A stretch of DNA of 64,000 nucleotides, from assembly GCA_963835065.1 (NCBI GenBank), contig CAWIEK010000053.1:128001-192000 (forward strand). Direction: 5' to 3'. The DNA is from an uncultured Chthonomonadaceae bacterium. Lineage in GTDB: Bacteria; Armatimonadota; Chthonomonadetes; Chthonomonadales; Chthonomonadaceae. This document shows, piece by piece, positions 13,288 to 62,486 of the stretch. A model generated the notes under the pieces. The model made no database searches. It saw only the letters and a list, made by a program, of their open reading frames with translations, and was not told where the DNA came from. How positions within the stretch are numbered: the stretch's first letter is position 1; the number at the start of each line of letters is the position of its first letter. The translations under genes were made by a program, and so were the position numbers.

Positions 13288-15970
13288 ATGACTGCATACG
13301 AGACAATCGAACAAACGCCGGCCTCGCGCCCTGATGCCGCCGCAAACTTCGCCCAAACCTTTGCTCCCTCGGACTTATCGGCTCGCCCTGTTCGCGCGCC
13401 GGATTACAAGGCGGAAAGTGAAGCGCTTGCGTCCCTGGCCCGCGAACTGGTTACGGCTCCGACGCAGGTTCTGCAGAAACTGTGCGAACTGGCGCTTGAA
13501 CTCTGCGGCGCTCAAGCGGCGGGTATCCGCCTTGAGGAAGAGGAGACGGAAACCGGTGTTTTACATTGGCGCGCGCTGGCGGGCGAGATGGATTCCTGCT
13601 TGCAGGCGATTACGCCCGACGATTTAGCGTCGTATGGCGTCACCGACGATTGCCGCGCGCCCCGGCTTTTCTCCCGGCCCGAAGCGCCTGTCCCGTATGT
13701 CCAGGCCATTTCGCCGCTGATTTCTGAATTCCTGCTTATTCCCTTTTGCCCGGACGACAAACCCGTTGGAACGCTGTGGGTGGTCGGCAGTTGGAATGAC
13801 CGCCGGTTTGACTCGGAAGATGCGCGTCTGCTTACAAACCTCAGCCAATTTGCAGGCGCCGCGTACAAGGTTTTGGGCATACAAGCAGATGTGCAGGCGA
13901 TCAACACCCGGCTTGCCGCAGAAGCCGCGTTGCATAAAGCGGTGGAAGAGGAGCGACGCGCAAGTGAGGCGGAACAGGCGCTGAAAGCAAGCGAACTCAA
14001 GTTCCGCTCCCTGTTTGAAAATGCGCGAGAAGCCATCGGCATCGCCACCAAAGGCCGCGTTGTCTTTGTGAATCCGGCGTATGCCCGGCTGCTGGGGTAT
14101 GCGTCTCCTGATGAAATGATCGGACTTTCGGCACTGGAAACGGTTGCTCCCAAAGATCAGCCTCGCCTGATTGAAATGGCGCACAAGCGCAACGCGGGCG
14201 AAGACGCGCCTTTCACGTATGAGTACCGGGGCCGCAAGAAAGACGGCACGGAGTGTGACCTGGAAAACTATGTTTCCAGTTATGAACAGAACGGGCAAAT
14301 TTATACGGTCGTCACCACCCGCGACATCACCGCGCGCAAGCAGGACGAGATCGCCCGCCAGTTTCTTACTGAAGCCTCAGCGGTGCTGGCCTCGTCCCTT
14401 GACTACGAGCAGACCTTACAACAGGTGGCCGATCTTGCCGTGCCCCACATTGCCGATTGGTGCGGGGTGGATATACGCGAAGAGGACGGCTCCATCAGCC
14501 AGCTTGCCGTCGCGCATGTCAATCCTGAAAAGGTAAGGTGGGGCCATGAACTCAGAAAGCGCTATCCGCCCAATCCGAATGATCCGCGCGGGCTGCCGGG
14601 CGTACTGCGCAGCGGACAGGCCGAGATTTATTCTCACATTCCCGACGAACTTCTTGTTGCGAGCGCGCGCGACCCGGAGCATCTGGAACTGATGCGGCAG
14701 ATCGGGCTGGAACTCGCTGATGATTGTTCCCATTGTGGCGCGGGAACGCATCTTAGGAGCCATTACCTTTGTAGCTACGGACGAGTCGGGGCATCACTAT
14801 ACCGAAGCCGACCTTGAACTTGCGCAGGGACTTGCGTCCCGCGCCGCGCTTGCCATTGACAATGCCCGCCTGTATCGCGCGGCGCAGGACGAACTGACCG
14901 AGCGGCGGCGCGTACAGGCCGCGCTGCTTGCCAGCGAGGAGCGGTTCCGATTCGCCCTCGCCAATTCCAGCATCATCGTTTATACGCAGGACCTCGACCT
15001 CCGCTATACGTGGGTTTATTATGGAGCGCTGAGTGGGGAAGACAGCAATGTGTACGGCAAAACCGACGCCGATCTTCTGCCCGCCGAAGACGCCCTTCCG
15101 CTGATGGAAATCAAGCGCCGGGTGCTGCAAACGGGTATCGAAGAGCGTCATACTGTTCGCGCCACGCTGCCTGGACAGGAACCGCTTTATCTGGAAACGA
15201 GTTTTGCGCCCCTGCGGGATGCGGCAGGAAATCTTATCGGCATTACAGGAACCGCCAATGATATTACGGAGCGGAAAAAGGCGCAGGATATTCTGGCGCA
15301 GCATCAGGCGGAAATCGAAGCCCTCAACGCGCGCCTGCGGCGCTCCATGCGCGAAACCCATCACCGGGTGAAGAACAATCTGCAAGTCATCACGGCGCTG
15401 ATAAACATGCAGCAGATGCAGTATGAGGAGCAGGTTCCCACGTCGGAACTGCAGCGGCTGACGCAGCACATCCGGGCGCTGGCTTCCATTCACGACCTGC
15501 TGACGCATCAAGCGCAGACCAATGCCGAAGTGACGGACATTTCAGTTGAGGACGTGATGGACAAACTGATGCCGGCGGTGCAGAGTATGGCTGTGGGGCG
15601 CAGCATTACCTTTGCCATAGAGGATATGCGCCTGCCCGTCCGCCAGAGTACGACGTTTGCCGTTTTAGTCAACGAAATGGTTTCCAATGCGCTCAAGCAC
15701 GGAGCCGGGGCGATTCACGTCGGCTTTCGGGTCGAGGGCGATACAGCCCTGCTGGAAGTGCTGGACGAGGGGCCGGGGTTCCCGCCGGACTTCAACCCGG
15801 AGCGCGCCGCCAATACCGGCCTTGATTTGATCGGCTCCCTGTCCCGGATGGATATGCGCGGCAGCGCGCGGTATGAGAACCGCGCAGAAGGCGGGGCGCG
15901 CGTGGTGGTCGAATTTCCCGTGCCGTCGCTCCTGAAAACGCCGGGAGAACAGTACGGCGAATCCTCTTGA
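13288..15970 (+). CDS. Cytoplasmic GAF/PAS sensor histidine kinase (HisKA_2 type); frameshift near 14710
   Basis: GAF-PAS-GAF-PAS order; H-box ETHHRVKNNLQ; NEMVSNALKHG, DEGPG, GLDL. Confidence 0.88.
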
Positions 15971-16060
15971 GCAAAACCCCCCGTGGAAAGGATAAAAAGA
16001 CAAGGATGAAGGATGAAGGATGAAGAAAGCGTTGGGCAAACGGGTAGGTAGAAAAAAGGA

Positions 16061-16203
16061 TATGTAGAGGCAGCGTCGAAATCTTGGCAATGCAGCGCTT
16101 CCAGCCCGCTGTCTCGTTGTGTCTGGTTGTAGGAGAGAGGCGTCGTGGCCTCCAAAGCGTCAGGGCGAACGGGAGGAGTGGGACATGGGCCTGTACCTCC
16201 TTT
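16061..16203 (-). ncRNA. Candidate sRNA or micro-peptide RNA, copy 1
   Basis: 140/143 identical to 52437-52579; contains AAGGAGG plus an 8-codon ORF (16186-16160) and hairpins. Confidence 0.5.
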
Positions 16204-16292
16204 CCTGAGTAAGTAGTTGATAGTTGATAGTTGATAGTTGATAGGAACTCGAACTTTCAGCCTTCGTCTCTATGTAGACGGTATTCTAGTGT

Positions 16293-16320
16293 TTAGACGG
16301 CTGTGGAGGGCGAAGGGTTC
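16293..16320 (-). promoter_or_regulatory. Putative ECF sigma promoter GAACC-N17-GTCTAA
   Basis: Both boxes and spacer length conserved at 52605-52632 while the spacer sequence diverges. Confidence 0.65.
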
Positions 16321-16553
16321 ACCTTTTTTCGCGTTGTTTGATTCTTTTTTCAATCTTTTTTAGAATAGTTTTTGCGGGAGGGTTGCTGTTGGCGTCGTGT
16401 GTGGGAATGGGGAGGGGTTCGCTTGCTGCGGGTGCGTACATCTATCACTTGTTGGCGGGCGCAACACTCAATGAGGGCACAACATGTTGTGCCCCACGTT
16501 CGGGAAGTTAAAATTCACAGATTCTAAAGTGAAATTTTGAAAGAAAGAAACTT

Positions 16554-27151: not shown

Positions 27152-27160
27152 ACGCTGCGA

Positions 27161-27211
27161 CAGTTGATAGTTCGTAGTTGATAGGGATGCAGGAACGACG
27201 CGCTTTCAGCG
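27161..27211. repeat. Dispersed AGTTGAT-based element (relatives at 16214-16261 and 59071-59128)
   Basis: agttgatagttcgtagttgatag-g-gatgcaggaacgacgcgctttcagcg versus ...gatag-a-gatgcagaaactacgaacttgcagcg. Confidence 0.7.
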
Positions 27212-36903: not shown

Positions 36904-36956
36904 AGGCAGAACATCAGGAACAAATCACTTTGATACAGCACACTCCCGTATGCACG

Positions 36957-38070
36957 GGACAATTGGCCGCAGGCCTAACATCCGGTATTTTATATGCCGG
37001 GGCAGCGCGGCAGTACCATGTTCAGGTGATTGCGCTATCAGAAAGCGTCAACTGAAATCCACGCCCACAAGGTGATCGAGCAGGATCAGGAACAGGCGGG
37101 CATTGCCGATGTCGCTATAACTGAAGGTGAAAATGCCCTGCGCGCCGATCCCGAAAAAGCCGGAGCGGGCGTCCGTGCGCCGCAGCGTCACCACGCCCTG
37201 ATTGATGGTGACGCGGGCAATCTCTTCCGTATTGCAGCGGGCGGTTTTGCCCCCGATGAACAGTTCGATATACCCCTCGCCCACCACCAGATAGTTGTTG
37301 TGCTGCAGGGAAAATCGGACGGCTCCGTTGCGCTGCAAGTCGGTTTTGGCGCGTTCAAACGCGAACGCGCTCCACGCCGCTTCTGCCGCGCCTGCGAATC
37401 GGAAAGCGTCTCCCGGCGGCGGGTCGCCCTTGGAACTGTGGTACGTGCCGCTCAGGGTAAACGGGCGATTGCCGCTCCCGCCCGACCACGTATAGTTGTA
37501 GGTTGTGCCGGTATACACGCCGTTGTAGTAGTTGCGGGTCTGCCGGGTACGCAGTTCCGCCACGTCCACAAAACGCAACAGGTCGCTTTGCCGGGGCGTG
37601 TCGTTGAGGTTCTTGATGTTGTAGCGGGCAACGCCGCTTTCCCCAACATACGTGCAGACGTTCGTTTTTCGGATGATCTTATAGCCGAGGAACGCGCCCA
37701 AACTGCCCGCCACGAGTACGCCCATTCCCAGAACCGCCTGACTGCTGCCGTCCTGCAGGCCCATCCACGCAAAGAAGGCGGCAAGCCCCCCTAACGCCAG
37801 CGCCGCAATCACGCGGGGCAGGGGCGGATTGGGATTTTTGTTGCGCAGGATGGTGGAATAGGCGCTGATGATTTTGCCGATTTCCATAGGCGGCGGCGCG
37901 AAAAACACGCGATCCGCTTCCAGCGCATTGCCGACATGATCGGTCACATCCGATGCCGGCGTCCATTCGTGCAGGGTTCCAATCATGGCGCTTTTTTCTC
38001 TGGTAGGGTGGTAGTGCCGCGTTTAACCAGTATATAAAATACCGGTTGTTAGACCTGCGGCCAATTGTCC
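36957..38070. mobile_element. Single-gene cassette bounded by 39-bp inverted repeats, no transposase
   Basis: ggacaattggccgcaggcctaacatccggtattttatat (36957-36995) versus reverse complement of 38032-38070, 2 mismatches. Confidence 0.55.
37048..37986 (-). CDS. Two-TM hypothetical protein
   Basis: 312-aa ORF, two hydrophobic helices then a beta-rich domain. Confidence 0.7.
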   Translation of the reverse strand: MIGTLHEWTPASDVTDHVGNALEADRVFFAPPPMEIGKIISAYSTILRNKNPNPPLPRVIAALALGGLAAFFAWMGLQDGSSQAVLGMGVLVAGSLGAFLGYKIIRKTNVCTYVGESGVARYNIKNLNDTPRQSDLLRFVDVAELRTRQTRNYYNGVYTGTTYNYTWSGGSGNRPFTLSGTYHSSKGDPPPGDAFRFAGAAEAAWSAFAFERAKTDLQRNGAVRFSLQHNNYLVVGEGYIELFIGGKTARCNTEEIARVTINQGVVTLRRTDARSGFFGIGAQGIFTFSYSDIGNARLFLILLDHLVGVDFS

Positions 38071-38121
38071 TGCGGACATAAGGTTGTGCTGTGTTTAAGT
38101 GGTTTGTTTATGTATACGCGC

Positions 38122-43450: not shown

Positions 43451-43468
43451 GTTGGTTTAGGGACAAAC

Positions 43469-43545
43469 AGTGCTGAATGATGAGTGATGAGTGATGAATA
43501 ACACGAGGCAATTTACTCATCACTCATCACTCATCATTCAGCACT
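43469..43545. repeat. Heptamer palindrome (perfect 29-bp arms)
   Basis: agtgctgaatgatgagtgatgagtgatga and its reverse complement at 43517-43545. Confidence 0.88.
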
Positions 43546-43562
43546 TTAAAAGCCCTCAACTC

Positions 43563-52248: not shown

Positions 52249-52436
52249 AATGGCTCCTGTTCCGGCTGCGCCGCAGCGCAGCGTAAAATCGTGCCCTGAC
52301 GGGAACACGCTGCGCATTGGACGCCCCGCGCGCCCCTCGCGTTACATCCAAGCGCCGGGAAAACAGTGGCAAGCAAGGGATGAAAAGACAAGGATGAAGG
52401 ATGAAAGCGCCGGAAAAAGGGCATGTAGAAAAAGAG

Positions 52437-52579
52437 TATGTAGAGGCAGCGTCGAAATCTTGGCAATGCAGCGCTTCCAGCCCGCTGTCTCGTTGTGTCT
52501 GGTTGTAGGGGTGAGGCGTCGTGGCCTCCAAAGCGTCAGGGCGAACGGGAGGGGTGGGACATGGGCCTGTACCTCCTTT
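52437..52579 (-). ncRNA. Candidate sRNA or micro-peptide RNA, copy 2
   Basis: 140/143 identical to 16061-16203; 8-codon ORF 52562-52536. Confidence 0.5.
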
Positions 52580-52604
52580 GCTGCATAGTAGACACTTGTA
52601 CTGT

Positions 52605-52632
52605 TTAGACGGATGAGTGGAACAAAGGGTTC
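52605..52632 (-). promoter_or_regulatory. Putative ECF sigma promoter GAACC-N17-GTCTAA
   Basis: Same boxes and spacing as 16293-16320. Confidence 0.65.
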
Positions 52633-53117: not shown

Positions 53118-53146
53118 CCGAGGCGAGGTTATTTTGGTGACATTTC
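53104..53146 (+). pseudogene. Truncated PemK/MazF-family toxin (first 14 codons)
   Basis: MTTYSRGEVILVTF, then abrupt switch to opposite-strand methylase sequence. Confidence 0.55.
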
Positions 53147-53444
53147 GGTCACGGGCGCATCAAGGGGAGCGCAGGCAAGGGCAAGTTCTTCCCGCGAGAA
53201 GGGCGTCAGGCCAATGGCTTCGGAAAGCGCGTCTTTGTGGCTGCGGAGGACGCGAAAGAAGTTGACGGCCTCGCGATCCAGATCGTTGTAGGTTTCCACG
53301 GGCGAAGGCGGACGGTTGAGCAGAACGGCTGCCGACCCGCCGAACACGTCGCAGAAGTGAGTTGTCTGCGGGAGCAGGGGCAGCAGCCAATCCAGATGAC
53401 TGTACTTCCCGCCATACCAAGCCAAACGCGATCATCTTTTCCAT
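53147..53444 (-). pseudogene. Truncated Dam-like (D12 class) adenine methyltransferase
   Basis: WYGGK, DVFGGSAAVLLN, ETYNDLD; only about 100 aa, no DPPY motif; frameshift near 53421. Confidence 0.8.
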
Positions 53445-53486
53445 GCAACCACTATTCACCAAGAAAAATATTACTTGCAATTGTAC

Positions 53487-54161
53487 TTAAGGAGCTAGAG
53501 CCGTACATAACTCCTGAATACGAGTAGTATTGCCGCCAACTTCACGTTGAATAGCGGAAATCATATCTTCGGAAGACATACCTCTGTTCGGAATATTGCG
53601 AAGCCAATCAAGTCTATTGATGATACGAGTTTTCTCAGTTTCACCAAGTTCCTGCAACAAATATATGCAGGCATCCACGTGAAATTCATGATTTCTAGGT
53701 GCTGGGCTTTGTTGTATTTGAGCCAACAAATAAGATTTTAGATTCTCCGATAACCCTTGACCGCTCCCCCTAACATCGGCCTTATGAATTCGGACCAGCC
53801 AAGGCATACTTTTAACTTCAGGCCAGTTCCCATCAACGGGTACAGGAATGAAATTACGTCCCGCCCGCAAAGAGTGTGCTACTTCTCGTCTGCAATAATC
53901 ACTATTGAAGTATGAGTGAGTGGCAAGACAAATGAAATGGGTTGCTTGGCTCGCCGCAGGTAGAAACACATTCTCGAAAGAGACACCAGGAGGTATCTCA
54001 CTGTTATCAAGAAAAACTCGTTGCCCCACGGCACGTAAGGTGTCGTACAAGTCCTTTGTAAGTTGATCCGCTTCTCCATGACGATAGGAGAGGAATATGT
54101 CGTATGGTTCTGTTGCTTGATTGGGATTGAAAACAATGTTTTCCGAGGCGCGATCTGTCAT
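53487..54161 (-). CDS. TIR domain protein (possibly the C-terminal part of a TM-TIR fusion)
   Basis: YDIFLSYRH, RVFLD, SYFNSDYCRREV with catalytic-position Glu; own RBS aaggag. Confidence 0.85.
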   Translation of the reverse strand: MTDRASENIVFNPNQATEPYDIFLSYRHGEADQLTKDLYDTLRAVGQRVFLDNSEIPPGVSFENVFLPAASQATHFICLATHSYFNSDYCRREVAHSLRAGRNFIPVPVDGNWPEVKSMPWLVRIHKADVRGSGQGLSENLKSYLLAQIQQSPAPRNHEFHVDACIYLLQELGETEKTRIINRLDWLRNIPNRGMSSEDMISAIQREVGGNTTRIQELCTALAP

Positions 54162-54998
54162 ACTATCTCCTTCAGGTACACGAGGCGAACCGATTATTAT
54201 ATCGTATAACCACACATAGACTTTAACAACAAACTCAATAATTGTCCAGAATTTCCAGGGTACAACCTTGTTATCTTGGGCAGGGCGGCAACGGAGGAAA
54301 TTTACGAAAAAGTACGTAAATATTAATTTCATAATCGAAAAACTCACACGCATCCAATCAGACATAGCATTATCAGTGCCAAAATGAACTCCTATAGTAT
54401 AATGAATAGAGTCTAAAAGTTCAAAACAAGAGTATGCAAGAAGTACAACTTTTAATGTCGCATTGACTACTTGGTGTTTGGCGTCGTTTGTTTGATAAAG
54501 TTGAACAAGACCTGCACCAGTTTTCCAGTAGCCAAAAACAGTCGTTATAAAGCCTGTCCACTCACATCAATATTCGCTGAACTTCTCGCCTGGAATCCAT
54601 TTCTCAGTTGATGCATTAGATATGCTACCAGCCAATGTAAGAATTGCAAGGAAAATGAACGCTCCAACATCAATTGGTGCGATGCTGTTCGCTAAGGTAC
54701 CACTTTGTTCTTCTTCCGCCTCACGGCTCAAAAGAACACCTATGTATATTAGTAAGTAACCTCCGAACGCAGGTATGAGTTCGGCAGATGCTGGTCTCTT
54801 AATCTGAAAAAGTATGGTGTCGTAATATACTACCAATAAGGCGTAATGGAGAGCAAAAAGAGCAAAAGCGGTGACAATCCTTGATTTTCTATTAGGTTTA
54901 GGTATTACAACCGCTCCCCACATAGTAAGGAGGACACATATAACGCAAGAAAGCCATCCGAAAGTGGTCGAATAATGAATTGCATTGCGGCTATCCAT
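54162..54998 (-). pseudogene. Multi-pass (about 7 TM) membrane protein with internal TGA, in frame with TIR
   Basis: Frame stays open after TGA 54569-54567 (CEWTGFITTVFGYW...) and runs into the TIR start without another stop. Confidence 0.6.
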
Positions 54999-55370
54999 TG
55001 TTTATATACCTTAGAAGCAGAATATGCATGAAGACATACTATTGCATTGCTAATGCTGTGCTTGTCAATCGGTCATTGCTATAGCGCGAAGCACTAGCTT
55101 CGACAATAAACAATCGGATATACTACAAAAAAATACCCAGATCGTAATGTATAACATAGATATTAAAGACATACATGGCAAAATCTGAACTATTGTCTTC
55201 AGCATAGCCTCCAGTAGTCTAAATTGTGTGTACATTGAGACGCAAGCTTACTGCGCAAAGCCTTCGTCGTCTTCATCAAGAAATTCCACGTACAACTGCC
55301 GGTTTCCTTCCCATTGCATAACGAAATTTGAAAAATTTTCAAAAACTTTATGGACGTATGCCTTTACGGT

Positions 55371-56903
55371 CTACAAGTAAGATGCTTCACTATGTTCGAA
55401 CAAACGTAACGAAACAAAGCCCGCTTCCTGCAGAGCCTCTACGGAAATCGGCAGTGACTCTAAAGCGCGAGGTTCCACTTTGATGGCCCCGGAACCGTAG
55501 GATTTGCCGACACACGCGAGATTGGCAAGCACGGAAGGGTGCTGCAGCAGACGCCATACGCGGCTGATGGTTTCCGGGTCGTCTTGGCGTGGATAGACGC
55601 ACAGGAAACTGGTGAGCGGGAGAACATTGGCCTCGTTGCGGATAAAGCGCACGTTGCGGCGGCCTAAATACGCGAACAGGAATGGAGGTACGCGCCGTTT
55701 TTCCATGCTGTACCAGGGCTTGCGCTGGCTGATGAGAGCGCGTTGCGGCAGTCCGCGTTTTTCGCCTTCCAGCAAATACGCCTGAACCGAAGCCGGAAAA
55801 TCCTCTAGCGGGCGGGCATCCGGCGCAAACAGCAGAGTGGGCCGGCCTTCCTGTTCCAGTTGTTCCCAATCGTCGGGCGTGAAAACTTCCATTGTCACAT
55901 CACGGGTACGCCCGACCGCAGGCCGCAGGAACGCTTCGGGTATCTGTAATTCTTGTGCCTGCGCGCGGGTCAGGAAAAAGAATTCGTTGTCTCCTGTCGC
56001 TATGCCGCGCATTACGGCGCAGAAGTCGCCTAAGCGGGGGCAGCTCTCGTTATGGATACGCGGTACGCGGGAAAAACCGGTTTGCAAGCCTTCCGTTAGA
56101 AGCCGTGAATGGACGGAAATATCGGCGCGAGTTTCCGGCGGCAGGCCGTCCACAATCCAGTTTCGCAGGGCATCCGTCCACGCTTCCTGCACCTGCACCC
56201 ACAGAAACATGGGACGCGGTTCCGCCTTGCGTATCAGGAAGACAAGCGCGTTTGTGTCCACGCCGGGAAATGGAGAGGCTTGGGGTTCAAATGTAATCAC
56301 CGCATCCAAGCAGTAGTTTGTGGTAATCCACTGCCACAACGGACTGGCCGATTTCCCCTCGCACACATCGGCAGGCAGAATGAACGCCAGCCGTCCGCCG
56401 TCACGCAGCAGCGTGAGCGCCCGCAGCAGAAAATACACATGCAGCCCGGCGCGTCCGTCAAGCGCTTTGCCGAGCATTTGTTGACACCATGTTTTCAGCG
56501 TTTGTTTCGCGTCGAGGGAAAGCCGATGATGCCGAATGTAGGGCGGATTGGCAACAATGGCATTATACGTGTCATGGGGTGGATCAAACACAAAATCCCG
56601 AACTTCCACGCCCGCAAGGTCATTCTTAATTTGTTCGTCGCCGCTAGTTTTCCGCAGAATATCGGCGTCCAGTTCCGTTCCCATCAGCCGCACTTCGCGT
56701 CCCAACCGTTGTGCTTCCTGTTTGCCTGCCCGAAAGAACGCGCCCTCCCCAACTGCCGGATCGAACAGATGCTCGCTTCCTACTGCAAGAACATAAGCAG
56801 TCATTGCTTCCGCAACCCAGGCGGGCGTCCAGAACTGCCCCTTTTGCCGCAATACCTCTCGCGCTTCTCCCGTACCCGGCAGTTTTTGATGGTATATCGT
56901 CAT
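55371..56903 (-). CDS. N6-adenine DNA methyltransferase (type II, gamma order), no intact endonuclease
   Basis: GQFWTP, FDPAVGEGAF (motif I), IVANPPY (motif IV). Confidence 0.9.
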   Translation of the reverse strand: MTIYHQKLPGTGEAREVLRQKGQFWTPAWVAEAMTAYVLAVGSEHLFDPAVGEGAFFRAGKQEAQRLGREVRLMGTELDADILRKTSGDEQIKNDLAGVEVRDFVFDPPHDTYNAIVANPPYIRHHRLSLDAKQTLKTWCQQMLGKALDGRAGLHVYFLLRALTLLRDGGRLAFILPADVCEGKSASPLWQWITTNYCLDAVITFEPQASPFPGVDTNALVFLIRKAEPRPMFLWVQVQEAWTDALRNWIVDGLPPETRADISVHSRLLTEGLQTGFSRVPRIHNESCPRLGDFCAVMRGIATGDNEFFFLTRAQAQELQIPEAFLRPAVGRTRDVTMEVFTPDDWEQLEQEGRPTLLFAPDARPLEDFPASVQAYLLEGEKRGLPQRALISQRKPWYSMEKRRVPPFLFAYLGRRNVRFIRNEANVLPLTSFLCVYPRQDDPETISRVWRLLQHPSVLANLACVGKSYGSGAIKVEPRALESLPISVEALQEAGFVSLRLFEHSEASYL

Positions 56904-59000: not shown

Positions 59001-59137
59001 CTTACTCCATTTAGGGTGATGTCTATTAGCGGCGATAGACTGAACCCCTCTTACGCCGCTGTATACTGAGCAGTTGATAGTTGATAGTTCGTAGTTGATA
59101 GAGATGCAGAAACTACGAACTTGCAGCGTCTCTTCGC

Positions 59138-61657
59138 TCAGCGTTTTAATCGTACAATCGTGTAGGAATACGGGGCAACAGTCAGGCCGAACTGCTGACC
59201 GGCAGTTTCCAGTGTGGAATGGAGGCTGCGAATCTGCTCCGGCGCGTCCGGCGCGTTGACGGCTTTGAGATCGCCGCTTAATGTCCATATATCGGCGCGC
59301 GGCTGGACGTGTTCAAAATTGGCGAGGGTAATGTTGGCGCGTTGGGACGCGCTGCCGATGTTGACGATGTGCAGCGCGAGGGTTTTGCCGTCCTCGCTGC
59401 GCGTCGCGGTCACGTCTATATCCCCGTTTGTGTTTCCGAGCGGATTTCCCTCGGCGCTTTCGATGCGGCTTTCCACGCAGAGCGGCTGGTAATTAGTTGC
59501 CGCCATCTGCTGCGCGTAAAACGGCGGCATCCCCCATACCTTGTCGGGCGTGAAGAAGATTTGGCCCTGATCCCAGCCGTTGTCGTTTTGCTGCCAGGGC
59601 TGCAGGCAGTTGGCGGGGCAGTCCATGAGGACGAAATCGCCGTGACGTTGCGTGACGTTGAGGATGTGGGCGTGTCCGAGCGCGCGCTGCAAATCGTGGC
59701 GTCCGCCGTTTTCTTCGAAAATGCAGGCTTTCAGTTTGGTTCCGGGCGACCATGCTTGAAACAACTGCTGCATCTGCGTCAACTGCCGGTCTACGTTCGC
59801 GCCCTCATGCAGATCATCCCCGCCTACGTGAACATCCCACAGCGCGGCCTTATCCCCCAATTCCTGCACAATTTGTCTGCAAAACGGCTCATCGGGACGC
59901 CACCAGGCCGCGATTACGAACTGAAGGTTTGGGTCGCGTTGGCGCATGGCCGGATACAGCAGTTTGAAGCGTTCGAGGTAGCGGGCGTACCAGGCTTTAT
60001 CGCCGTCAATGGCTTCCTCGTTGCCGATTTCGATGGCGCGGACGTTGTAGGGGCGCGGGTGTCCGTTTTGGGCGCGCACTTTCCCCCATCGGGACGTGGC
60101 CGGTCCGTTGAGATACTCCACCATATCTGATGCGTCTTCGGGCGTTTCGTCAATGTTGATGGCAAAGGCGGGTTCGATATGCGCGGCCTCGCAAAACTGT
60201 AGGAATTCTTCGATGCCGAACCCGTTTGTCGAATGGGGATTCCACCAGCCTTTCACCTGCATGCGCCTGTCGCGGGGACCAAGCATCCATTTCCAGCGGT
60301 ACGTAGGCGCGTTTACCATCGAGCCGCCGTAGCGCAGGAACGTCAAGCCTTGTTTGACCATTACGTTCGCTATGTCGGCGCGGATGGGCAGGCTATGAAA
60401 CAAATCAGCCCCGGTTGGCATGAGTTCTACGTAATCTATCCACAGCGTTCCCGGCTTGTCAATCCACAGGGCAAAACGGGCGCGCGGGTCGGAAGCGTCC
60501 GCGCGCAGGGTAAATTCATAGCGCGTCCAGGCCGAACTCGCCCCCTGCGAACTGCTGAACGGAAGTTCCTGCCGGGCATACGTATGCTTGCCGTCCGCGC
60601 TTTGCAGGGCAGCGGTGACGTGTCCCGTAAGGTTCTGCCGCCGCAGATAAACGTACCCCGTAAATAACTGCCCCTTGCGGACGGCAATGCCCCACCGGTT
60701 CAGGCCGGAATTGGCAACGCCGACAACGCCTTCCCCCTCGCCGCGCTCGATACGCTGCGAATAGCCGTTATTGTAGGCGAACTTGTGATCCCATGTATAA
60801 TGCGCGGGCGCGTTTCCCGTTTGCAGCTTGTCCCACATACCGCTGAGGGTGTCGCTATTGCTGTCTGCCGCCGCCTGCTGAAGCGTATCCGTCGTTTTGC
60901 CCTGCGCGGTTGCGATGCTGAGATTGCGAAAAGCGGCGTTGGTGTTCCAGGTGCGCAGGCCGACTTTTCCCGTTAAAATAGCCTCTGCGCCTTCCGTGTA
61001 TTCCAATTGCGGCTGTGGCGCGTTATCCAGCGTAATGCGCAGGGTGGCTCCACTCAGTTCCACGCGCAAATGATGCCATTTTTGGGGCTGAATGTCGGCG
61101 GGAACCACTTTGAGCAGATGCCAGTCGTCGCGGTGTCGGTGCAGGGCAAGATTGCGGTCACTGGCGCTCAGGCTGATCTCGTACCCCGTCCACGTATCCG
61201 CGCCGACACGGGGATTGCTGACGCGAACGAGCAGCGCGGCATTTCCGGCTTTGGCGTCCGCAAACTGCAAATCGCACTCCACAACCCCGTCCCGCATTTC
61301 CCCGTCACCGCGCACCAGTTTCGCGCCCGCGTCGGCATCCACGCGCAGGGCATTGTCCTGAACCTGCCACTGCCCGCCATACGCCGTCCAGTTTGCAAGC
61401 GGGCTGCGGGTAAGGGGCGGCTCCTCAAAACTTTCGCCAAAAATCAACTGCGCGTACAAGCCGCCATAAATCTCATGGTTCACGTCTTCAATGCAAGAAC
61501 CCGTCATCCAGGACGTAATATGGTTCGTCACCTTGTCGGCGTTGACATGTATATTTAAAGGTTTTGATGTCTGCCCAACCGTCCTATTCGCGCTGACCAG
61601 CAGCAGGAACATGACAAGAAGAACCCCTATTCTTGACGTACACCCTTCATCCTTCAT
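59138..61657 (-). CDS. GH51-like alpha-L-arabinofuranosidase with inserted DUF1080-like domain (start uncertain)
   Basis: EDVNHEIYGGLYAQL, LRYGG, FGIEEF, EIGNE; WHHLRV...GKVGL insert. Confidence 0.8.
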   Translation of the reverse strand: MKDEGCTSRIGVLLVMFLLLVSANRTVGQTSKPLNIHVNADKVTNHITSWMTGSCIEDVNHEIYGGLYAQLIFGESFEEPPLTRSPLANWTAYGGQWQVQDNALRVDADAGAKLVRGDGEMRDGVVECDLQFADAKAGNAALLVRVSNPRVGADTWTGYEISLSASDRNLALHRHRDDWHLLKVVPADIQPQKWHHLRVELSGATLRITLDNAPQPQLEYTEGAEAILTGKVGLRTWNTNAAFRNLSIATAQGKTTDTLQQAAADSNSDTLSGMWDKLQTGNAPAHYTWDHKFAYNNGYSQRIERGEGEGVVGVANSGLNRWGIAVRKGQLFTGYVYLRRQNLTGHVTAALQSADGKHTYARQELPFSSSQGASSAWTRYEFTLRADASDPRARFALWIDKPGTLWIDYVELMPTGADLFHSLPIRADIANVMVKQGLTFLRYGGSMVNAPTYRWKWMLGPRDRRMQVKGWWNPHSTNGFGIEEFLQFCEAAHIEPAFAINIDETPEDASDMVEYLNGPATSRWGKVRAQNGHPRPYNVRAIEIGNEEAIDGDKAWYARYLERFKLLYPAMRQRDPNLQFVIAAWWRPDEPFCRQIVQELGDKAALWDVHVGGDDLHEGANVDRQLTQMQQLFQAWSPGTKLKACIFEENGGRHDLQRALGHAHILNVTQRHGDFVLMDCPANCLQPWQQNDNGWDQGQIFFTPDKVWGMPPFYAQQMAATNYQPLCVESRIESAEGNPLGNTNGDIDVTATRSEDGKTLALHIVNIGSASQRANITLANFEHVQPRADIWTLSGDLKAVNAPDAPEQIRSLHSTLETAGQQFGLTVAPYSYTIVRLKR

Positions 61658-61676
61658 CCTTCATCCTTCCTCCTTT

Positions 61677-62486
61677 TCAGGAGTGCATCACCTGCCCGCC
61701 GTCCACGTTGAGCGTTTGCCCGGTGATGTTTTTGGCGTGGGGCGAAGCGAGATAAACCGCCATTGCCGCGATTTCCTGCGGTTCCTGCCATTGGCCGAGC
61801 GGCGCGACCTGCCGCACTTTGGCCGCTCCCCACGCTTCGTAATCCCGTTGGTTTTCGGGCGATTGCCGCGCGTTCCATGCCTGCCATACGGAACGGTTCA
61901 AAGCGGTCTGCACCATGCCGGGACAGATGACATTGACGCGGACGCCATAGGGAGCCAAATCTTTGGCGGCGCATTGCGCGAAGTTGATAACCCCGGCTTT
62001 GGCCGCGCTGTACGGTGGGTCGGTTTGCGAACCGATCTGTCCCGCAATAGAAGCGAGAAACAGCATTGTGCCGTTTCGGTTCTTTGCCATTTCGGGCGCA
62101 AACGCATGGGCGGCATGAACAACGCCAAGCAGGTTGATTTCCAGTACGCGCCCCCAATCCGCCGGTTCCAGATTCCAGAAGGGAAACCCGAACTTGCCGG
62201 AACCTCGTCCTGCCGCGTAAATCAGATGTTCGCACGTTCCAAGCGCGGATTGAATGGTTTGCGCGGCGCTTTGCACGGCGGCATAATCCGTCGCGTCCAC
62301 CTGCAAGCCGAGCGTTTGTACGCCGTATGCCGCTGCCGTTTCCGCCGCTGTTGTTTCCACCCCCGGCGCAATATCCAGCAAAGCCACATTCGCGCCCTCA
62401 GCCGCGAACGCTTCCGCGATTGCCCGGCCCATTCCCTGCGCCGCGCCGATAACAACGGCGGTCTGTCCTTCCAGTTGTAAGTTCAT
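61677..62486 (-). CDS. SDR family oxidoreductase
   Basis: GAAQGMG, YSAAK, VRVNVICPG, ITGQTLNVDGG. Confidence 0.92.
   Translation of the reverse strand: MNLQLEGQTAVVIGAAQGMGRAIAEAFAAEGANVALLDIAPGVETTAAETAAAYGVQTLGLQVDATDYAAVQSAAQTIQSALGTCEHLIYAAGRGSGKFGFPFWNLEPADWGRVLEINLLGVVHAAHAFAPEMAKNRNGTMLFLASIAGQIGSQTDPPYSAAKAGVINFAQCAAKDLAPYGVRVNVICPGMVQTALNRSVWQAWNARQSPENQRDYEAWGAAKVRQVAPLGQWQEPQEIAAMAVYLASPHAKNITGQTLNVDGGQVMHS

Follow-up and report, generated by a model that had tools for sequence, protein, structure and literature searches.

The window, by which we mean the whole stretch of 64,000 nucleotides analyzed here from an uncultured Chthonomonadaceae bacterium, carries two copies of a short element on the minus strand (copy 1 core at 16053-16207, copy 2 core at 52429-52583; table 1). 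The cores are 36,376 bp apart and differ at 3 of 143 positions from the Shine-Dalgarno sequence (SD) through the 3' CTACATA, which reproduces the 140 of 143 identical positions reported in an earlier sequence-only reading. The GAACC-N17-GTCTAA promoter and upstream A-tracts described there are found at both sites, as are the SD and ATG micro-ORFs, and both proposed stems and the U-rich tail are present in the sequence. That reading regarded the element as duplicated; both copies exist, but they are two of 162 in the genome rather than the products of a duplication.

Copy 1 converges on the 3' end of an ORF for a GAF/PAS/HisKA_2 kinase that ends at 15970, and the argument that it cannot be only a leader held up, with the orientation of downstream genes mixed across the family. 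The kinase is encoded in two overlapping ORFs (13288-14817 and 14720-15970, plus strand), and the split in mid-GAF domain may be a frameshift, a pseudogene, or an assembly error. Upstream of copy 2, positions 53129-56903 hold DNA methylase fragments, a TIR-domain protein, and an N6 methylase, a possible defense island. No close orthologs were found of the genes flanking both window copies, which were sought for an empty-site comparison. Elsewhere in the window, a 100-nt inverted repeat (36919-37018 versus 38009-38108, 78%) surrounds a 990-nt stretch with a 312-aa ORF, and heptamer tandem repeats, (TATCAAC)n, (TTCATCC)n, and others, lie at 27159-27211, 59076-59128, 548-637, 43464-43547, and 61641-61679. 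These heptamer families often form inverted pairs and have 26-137 sites each genome-wide; the optional 5' insert of the element, which contains (TATCAAC)n, is related to one of them, which is its source.

Table 1. Coordinates of the features of the two window copies.
Feature	Position	Strand	Remark
Decayed ISAzo13-type MITE 5' of copy 1, remnant of a transposon shell	16428..16527	-	scores 22.6 and 14.5, threshold 13.5
Ends of this MITE	left TIR near 16527-16501, right TIR remnant near 16455-16428	-	
A-tract region 5' of the -35 box, common to both copies	16321..16400	-	may be UP-element-like
GAACC, -35-like box, copy 1	16316..16320	-	box kept across the family; whole promoter 16320-16293
GTCTAA, -10-like box, copy 1	16293..16298	-	17 nt after GAACC; predicted start near 16286
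GTCTAC, second conserved box, copy 1	16274..16279	-	predicted RNA 5' end
Optional 5'-UTR insert with (TATCAAC)n, copy 1	16205..16265	-	copy 2 lacks the insert
Shine-Dalgarno AAGGAGG, copy 1	16196..16202	-	matches the anti-SD at the 16S 3' end
Micro-ORF MSHSSRSP-stop, copy 1	16160..16186	-	last codons CCC TGA
Stop-to-P1 spacer, copy 1	16153..16159	-	7 nt, fixed length
Hairpin P1 (GAGGC/GCCTC), copy 1	16137..16152	-	A-U to U-A double change in 5/28 rows
Long stem P2-P3-P4, copy 1	16067..16115	-	apical region near-invariant; likely protein-binding site
Conserved 3' CATA motif and U-rich tail, copy 1	16050..16066	-	probable 3' end; no canonical intrinsic terminator
Promoter GAACC-N17-GTCTAA, copy 2	52605..52632	-	
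GTCTAC, second box, copy 2	52588..52593	-	
SD (52578-52572) and micro-ORF MSHPSRSP-stop (52562-52536), copy 2	52536..52578	-	
RNA domain P1-P4 and U-rich tail, copy 2	52429..52528	-	128 bits with a covariance model whose alignment includes copy 2

Among the genomes searched, the family is restricted to the genus and is under selection. In the 8.0-Mb source genome (G000), blastn and an HMM each recovered 162 copies, all full length and with 161 distinct cores, and no decayed cores were found. Covariance models detected 47 copies in the congener G002, one of them truncated by an insertion, and 13 in the congener G001, whose 6.6-Mb genome has many IS. The same type of search found none in 39 other genomes of the family and none in a 150-genome sample of the phylum (23 candidates scored per genome, strict filters), and a DNA search of 38 relatives from outside the genus returned no homologs, its matches being to heptamer repeats. 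Two weak matches (E about 0.2) occur in genome G012. A pattern search, which covers the searched motif only, gave matches in other phyla among those listed, with three from metagenomes and none viral. The Rfam search that had been proposed as a check gave no match in the window at gathering thresholds; its best hit, with an E value of 1.7, is far below them. A literature search with limited coverage of subscription titles, and none of the supplements to RNA-motif surveys, found no description of the family. At one locus (G000:C30:36300-38900), two divergent copies with an ATT start and lost ECF boxes lie in a 1,092-bp tandem duplication, which is bounded by another IS-like end and duplicates part of a gene that we take to be a carbonic anhydrase.

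Promoter architecture is conserved across most copies, as expected if the boxes seen in the window were to recur elsewhere. The two-box promoter with a further GTCTA box is kept in 148 of 162 copies (151 with a looser pattern), the distance from -35 to -10 is tight, and the spacer sequence between the boxes varies. An AAC-type -35, a (C)GTC-type -10, fixed spacing, and a free spacer sequence agree with the general consensus for ECF promoters, and we assume that the family promoter is of this type; it is from this consensus that we infer the labels ECF and stress-responsive. The earlier promoter description was right in its two boxes and lacked the second conserved box, GTCTAC, which lies 14-22 nt beyond the -10 box and is kept also in one copy with a different promoter. 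Because its distance from the -10 box is variable, this second box is read as probably marking the RNA 5' end. No autoregulated ECF gene with the family promoter was found among 56 sigma-like proteins; five have loose upstream matches, none convincing. Promoter matches outside the family are near control level except for two strong ones, one of them at an orphaned shell. That orphan, the sole one found, has shell, promoter, and 5' insert without a core (G000:C54:109075, plus strand). Weak matches, with scores within the control range, are 5' of two genes that are presumably efp and clpC (G000:C49:86171, minus strand, and C49:159319, plus strand, respectively).

The core is not tied to a single promoter. 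In subfamilies of G002 and G001, the promoter is replaced by two other sets of conserved boxes and the core is kept, and three promoter classes drive the same core across the family. The alternative promoter-like boxes consist of a shared CTTCTAAA followed by TAATATA or CATATAGT (five loci in G001 and eight in G002), and the G001 group with alternative promoters stands out by its longer peptides, by starts other than ATG, and by a long hairpin at the 5' end.

The micro-ORF is conserved at the amino-acid level in its C-terminus. In 161 copies, a count that leaves out one copy without a recognizable P1, the distance from ATG to stop is 24 nt in 114, 27 nt in 42, and out of frame in 5, with 156 in frame. 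Of 215 copies (161 from G000, 46 from G002, and 8 from G001), 213 end in a Pro codon, and each of the four Pro codons is used. At codon -3, 199 copies have Arg, encoded in four ways, 6 have His, and 8 have Leu; stop codons are TGA in 176, TAA in 37, and TAG in 1. Five more G001 copies end Leu-Pro-Pro-stop. Non-consensus letters number 76, 19, and 123 at the first, second, and third codon positions, thus most at third positions, these being letters among related copies rather than events. N-terminal residues vary widely between copies, as they do freely in arrest peptides, for which RAPP/RAGP and R/HxPP are stalling motifs, and the C-terminal motif kept here is of the arrest-peptide kind. In the genome at large, 8.2% of 5,005 genes end in Pro versus 5.5% Pro overall, and since a C-terminal Pro is common, a Pro-stop need not stall ribosomes in this organism. 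The proposed pairing of the SD with a CCTCC inside the ORF is seen in the window and does not extend to the family, the SD-occluding CCTCC being present in only 94 of 161 ORFs.

Several other coding interpretations were considered. Variation in the frame to the apical motif (154/39/22) led us to reject a second ORF reached by frameshift or read-through, and the occurrence of TAA stops in 37 copies led us to reject SECIS-like recoding. One tRNA-Sec was called in G000. Type I toxin mRNAs pair a membrane-spanning hydrophobic peptide with an antisense RNA, and the peptides here have 8-11 residues and are mostly polar and Pro-rich. The peptide could instead be the active product and block termination in trans, as does apidaecin, an insect peptide that reportedly traps release factors, with the fold controlling synthesis or decay of the peptide. 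The peptides are Pro/Arg-rich, end in R-x-P or L-P-P, and resemble, as we judge it, an apidaecin-type sequence. We nevertheless regard this as very improbable, for the last three residues alone are conserved, lengths range from 8 to about 15, and the most invariant part of the gene is non-coding.

The micro-ORF is joined to the RNA fold by a spacer of constant length. The distance from stop to P1 is 7 nt in 207 of 215 copies, though the last three bases of the spacer vary. When a ribosome has a stop codon in its A site, an element 7 nt 3' sits at the mRNA entry channel, which would place P1 at that channel. In 56 rows, 97.8% of the cells of P1-P4 are paired, compared to 38-53% in slid controls, and none of 500 shuffles is as high, a test that overstates the support because the structure was derived from these same alignments of related rows. 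With a more diverse set of 28 rows, 95.5% of cells are paired. Double-sided changes occur in 4 of 19 pairs, from related rows, and P3 shows a wobble series of G-U, A-U, and G-C that fits an RNA. The proposed test of covariation among genome-wide copies yielded 162 copies and four helices with consistent or compensatory changes. Folding energy is no better than that of shuffles (median z of +0.11 over 40 copies; +0.7 to +0.8 for both window copies).

Across 161 copies, 57 of 122 columns are invariant. No long near-perfect complements in mRNA were found above controls, in a test to which short seeds are not visible, and complementarity to rRNA, tRNA, and tmRNA was at shuffle level or G-U-rich. 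A near-invariant apical region in combination with the lack of a long complement would fit a protein-binding site better than a long antisense seed. A 22-mer match to the apical core (2 mismatches, same sense) near G001:C3:109220, in what we take to be the coding stretch of a heavy-metal-binding-domain gene, has no G000 counterpart and was taken as chance. No canonical terminator was called at the end of the core. The element has neither a match to RF00013 nor the rod with central bubble that marks 6S RNA; RF00013 was found in none of the three genomes of the genus and in one of two other family genomes.

Genes next to the element provide little sign of a shared regulatory target. According to rough gene calls, the next downstream gene is in the opposite orientation in 100 of 162 cases, on the same strand in 61, and missing in 1, and the orientation is mixed in G002 and G001 as well. 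No neighbor family is enriched (largest cluster, 7 of 317). A leader-peptide attenuator was rejected for want of a co-oriented downstream gene of consistent family; because downstream genes point either way, the element is not a leader. In co-directional gaps, the element is on the opposite strand in 57 of 80 (p=0.0002). This antisense bias, together with a leader-peptide-like anatomy and a weak terminator, would suit a mobile local regulator that, by means of a Correia-like promoter and a ribosome-controlled attenuator, wires neighbors in sense or antisense to one sigma factor, and MITE promoters acting on neighbors are on record (PMC10969869). We consider such a regulator improbable, given the prevalence of opposite downstream genes and the lack of an enriched neighbor family. 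Moreover, the P1 5' strand could pair with the P2 3' strand in G000, as an attenuator would require, but this exchange of strands is impossible in the G001 subfamily, and a local regulator leaves unexplained the larger exclusion zone upstream of copies that is described below.

The variable promoter spacers, kept reading frame, consistent helix changes, and mixed downstream orientation bear out the proposal that the element is a multicopy, unannotated RNA or micro-ORF gene with its own promoter. The choice that had been offered between an sRNA and a micro-peptide named the right type of gene, but a combination of the two is the better reading, in which a translated minigene is linked to a fold by a spacer of fixed length.

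Transposon shells from two IS families surround a subset of copies. Both 19-bp TIRs of an ISAs1-type shell are present in 13 of 162 copies, 7 of which have a 10-bp target duplication with at most one mismatch, and all 10 strict ISAs1-type TIR pairs in G000 enclose a copy (453-476 bp). This type of TIR bounds an ISAs1 transposase in G002; no autonomous ISAs1 was found in G000, where there is only a remnant. For the ISAzo13-type shell, a downstream TIR scores above threshold in 48 of 162 copies (about 5 expected by chance), and five copies lie between outer TIRs 519-658 bp apart, two of them with a TAA/TAA duplication. Two autonomous 1.36-kb ISAzo13-type elements remain in G000, likely with a -1 frameshift between their ORFs, and the TIR of the autonomous element is shared by the MITE remnant next to copy 1. 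G000 also contains some 27 ISAzo13-type MITEs that are only 80-110 bp long and have TWA duplications (e.g., C1:163928-164019). A flank motif initially considered a tyrosine-recombinase site was dropped, being the ISAzo13 TIR.

The shells are separable from the unit that they carry. The core is absent from autonomous ISAs1 and ISAzo13 sequences, and 86 of 161 copies are without any shell remnant, yet intact. In 14 copies with an ISAs1 shell, core windows are 84-95% identical (apical region, 94-95%) versus 70-89% for the shell upstream of the promoter, and the TIRs too are less well conserved than the core; selection is on the unit rather than the shell. A transposon end had been named as an alternative identity for the element, and about half of the copies do keep IS-end remnants in their flanks, but since the core is found with two unrelated IS families, it is not in itself an IS end. 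Of the properties expected of MITEs, TIRs matching an autonomous IS and target-site duplications are found for subsets of copies, and the interior is not an IS-derived, neutrally decaying sequence. At least 8 of 47 copies in G002 have a G000 copy at the orthologous site, and these are not mutual best matches (similarity ranks of 6-86 among 161), a sign of gene conversion within genomes. The 5' types mix with a genome-specific 3' domain, and uniformity of the core may partly result from gene conversion.

Mobility raises the possibility that the element is selfish cargo similar to Ssr9 of ISPpu9, favoring its own spread or retention (for instance as an addiction or transposase-helper RNA), homogenized by gene conversion, and of no benefit to the host. 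Copy numbers of 13, 47, and 162 within one genus, MITE shells with target duplications, and concerted evolution at shared sites are all consistent with such a history, and propagation of an sRNA module by means of an IS transposase has been described (PMC12288879). Carriage of the same core by two unrelated transposase families, the intactness of shell-less copies, the lack of decayed cores in G000, and the persistence of copies at orthologous sites argue against it, and a kept reading frame is not explained by selfishness alone. On balance, purely selfish cargo is unlikely.

Location of copies along the chromosome deviates strongly from random. Among 105 gaps between neighbors, one is smaller than 5 kb (the tandem duplication), 4 are smaller than 10 kb, and 9 are smaller than 15 kb, versus 13.6, 27.2, and 38.5 expected when sites are drawn at random from 3,467 intergenic slots; values this low came up in 0 of 2,000 draws. 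Fifteen other repeat families in G000 (26-137 sites each) are random or clumped. Local hopping was rejected as a cause of spacing, as neighbors resemble each other no more closely than random pairs do. Once the tandem duplicate is left out, face-to-face copies (n=27) have a median gap of 21 kb, tandem copies (n=57) one of 36-38 kb, and back-to-back copies (n=20) one of 48 kb, and the back-to-back and face-to-face classes differ (Mann-Whitney p=0.0007; strand permutation p=0.0002). Within 15 kb, copies have 3 others upstream and 15 downstream, whereas a null that keeps gap class gives 43 on each side. In the three largest contigs alone (p=0.11, 7 versus 7 pairs) and in G002 (p=0.11), the asymmetry keeps its sign but falls short of significance. 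There is no replication-strand bias (58/122). Back-to-back avoidance of genes predicted to be highly expressed, which a local cost of active copies would entail, is in the predicted direction in six of six cells but is weak and no more than suggestive (p of 0.007-0.26); as a counter-example, one copy is 9 kb from a ribosomal-protein operon and divergent to it.

Spacing of this kind could be the function of the element rather than a by-product. Copies could tile the chromosome in cis, with the complex of nascent RNA, ribosome, and protein forming an anchor, a topological barrier, or a source of supercoils, each copy serving approximately 20 kb behind and 10 kb ahead and a new copy being kept only where the chromosome is unserved. 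Such tiling is consistent with additive median gaps among the three orientations, the near-empty 15 kb upstream of copies, the specificity of the effect to this family, and the lack of replication-strand bias, and gene location should not matter to a freely diffusing RNA. The same pattern is however predicted by a local cost, no candidate partner protein was identified, and the 13 copies in G001 are too few to tile its genome despite its many IS, which argues against tiling as the original role. We regard tiling as possible, on the doubtful side. A broader version, in which approximately 160 sigma-controlled ribosome-loading RNA genes constitute a genome-architecture system that resets topology or anchors the nucleoid under stress, is a conceivable but minority reading; the recruitment of transposon shells on two occasions to seed copies is a part of that reading and shares its low standing.

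We tentatively favor, with less than even confidence, a stress-induced ribosome-parking RNA whose dose has been raised by transposon carriage and whose spacing derives from the topological cost of active copies. Each copy would be a self-contained small gene, likely transcribed from a stress promoter of the ECF type and likely translated, with the ribosome parked at the proline-stop just ahead of the predicted protein-binding fold. Under stress, the many copies would jointly hold ribosomes or release factors, and the benefit of dosage would act in trans, with transposon carriage raising the dose. A strong promoter and a nascent RNA that drags a ribosome would generate twin supercoil domains. 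Purging would extend over 15-20 kb for back-to-back copies, whose negative supercoils add up, over about 10 kb for face-to-face copies, and over an intermediate distance for tandem ones. In this scheme we infer transcription, the sigma factor, termination stalling, the protein partner, and the dosage benefit in trans. Arrest peptides, TnaC among them, reportedly inhibit growth when overexpressed because they capture tRNA-Pro (PMC11890864), and twin supercoil domains in E. coli reach 25 kb each way (PMC9071471). Against the ribosome-parking model, an 8-residue chain barely fills the exit tunnel, and a 200-nt transcript gives few supercoils per round.

If copies hold ribosomes, the family represents a new route to control of translation in times of stress, tuned by gene dosage. 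If spacing reflects function, it suggests an RNA-based organization of chromosome topology. Where spacing instead reflects cost, the family is a natural ruler for the reach of transcription-driven supercoils and for which side is costlier. In each case, two IS families serve as delivery vehicles for one host or selfish gene.

To our knowledge, no bacterial small RNA gene has approximately 160 intact dispersed copies that keep promoter, frame, and fold, nor do we know of one with direction-dependent self-exclusion along the chromosome. Qrr, csRNA, LhrC, and CcsR are sets of several near-identical sRNA genes under one regulator; relative to these, the element has one to two orders of magnitude more copies, has no complementary target that we found, and is transposon-borne. 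Correia elements and QMITE1/2 of Coxiella (PMC10969869) are likewise short, high-copy, and intergenic, with IS-derived TIRs, target duplications, and an internal promoter, but the element differs from them in that its cargo outlives the shell, uses two unrelated IS families, includes a kept minigene and fold, and is over-dispersed. Ssr9 of ISPpu9 (IS110, Pseudomonas putida) is also a multicopy sRNA gene that uses an IS transposase in trans; it has 8 copies and moves with IS110 circles (PMC12288879), whereas the element has 162 copies in DDE-type TIR elements, a core outside the autonomous IS, and a translated minigene. Like the bmrX and spyA target mRNAs of Rae1, the element has a short ORF in which pausing at the stop codon may be coupled to RNA fate; those are single-copy mRNAs, and the abstract of PMC12407103 describes no comparable conserved 3' fold. 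With TnaC, PepNL, SpeFL, and MsrDL (PMC11890864), it shares a short ORF, a C-terminal Arg-x-Pro before the stop, and a structured region at a fixed distance, and it differs in having no regulated downstream gene, a much shorter peptide, a high copy number, and stalling that is predicted. By the criteria that define these classes, the element is not an attenuator, a plain MITE, a type I toxin mRNA, or a member of any Rfam family. Judged by its sequence, it may best be described as a gene that acts in the way of a termination-arrest minigene linked to a structured RNA and that travels in the way of a MITE.
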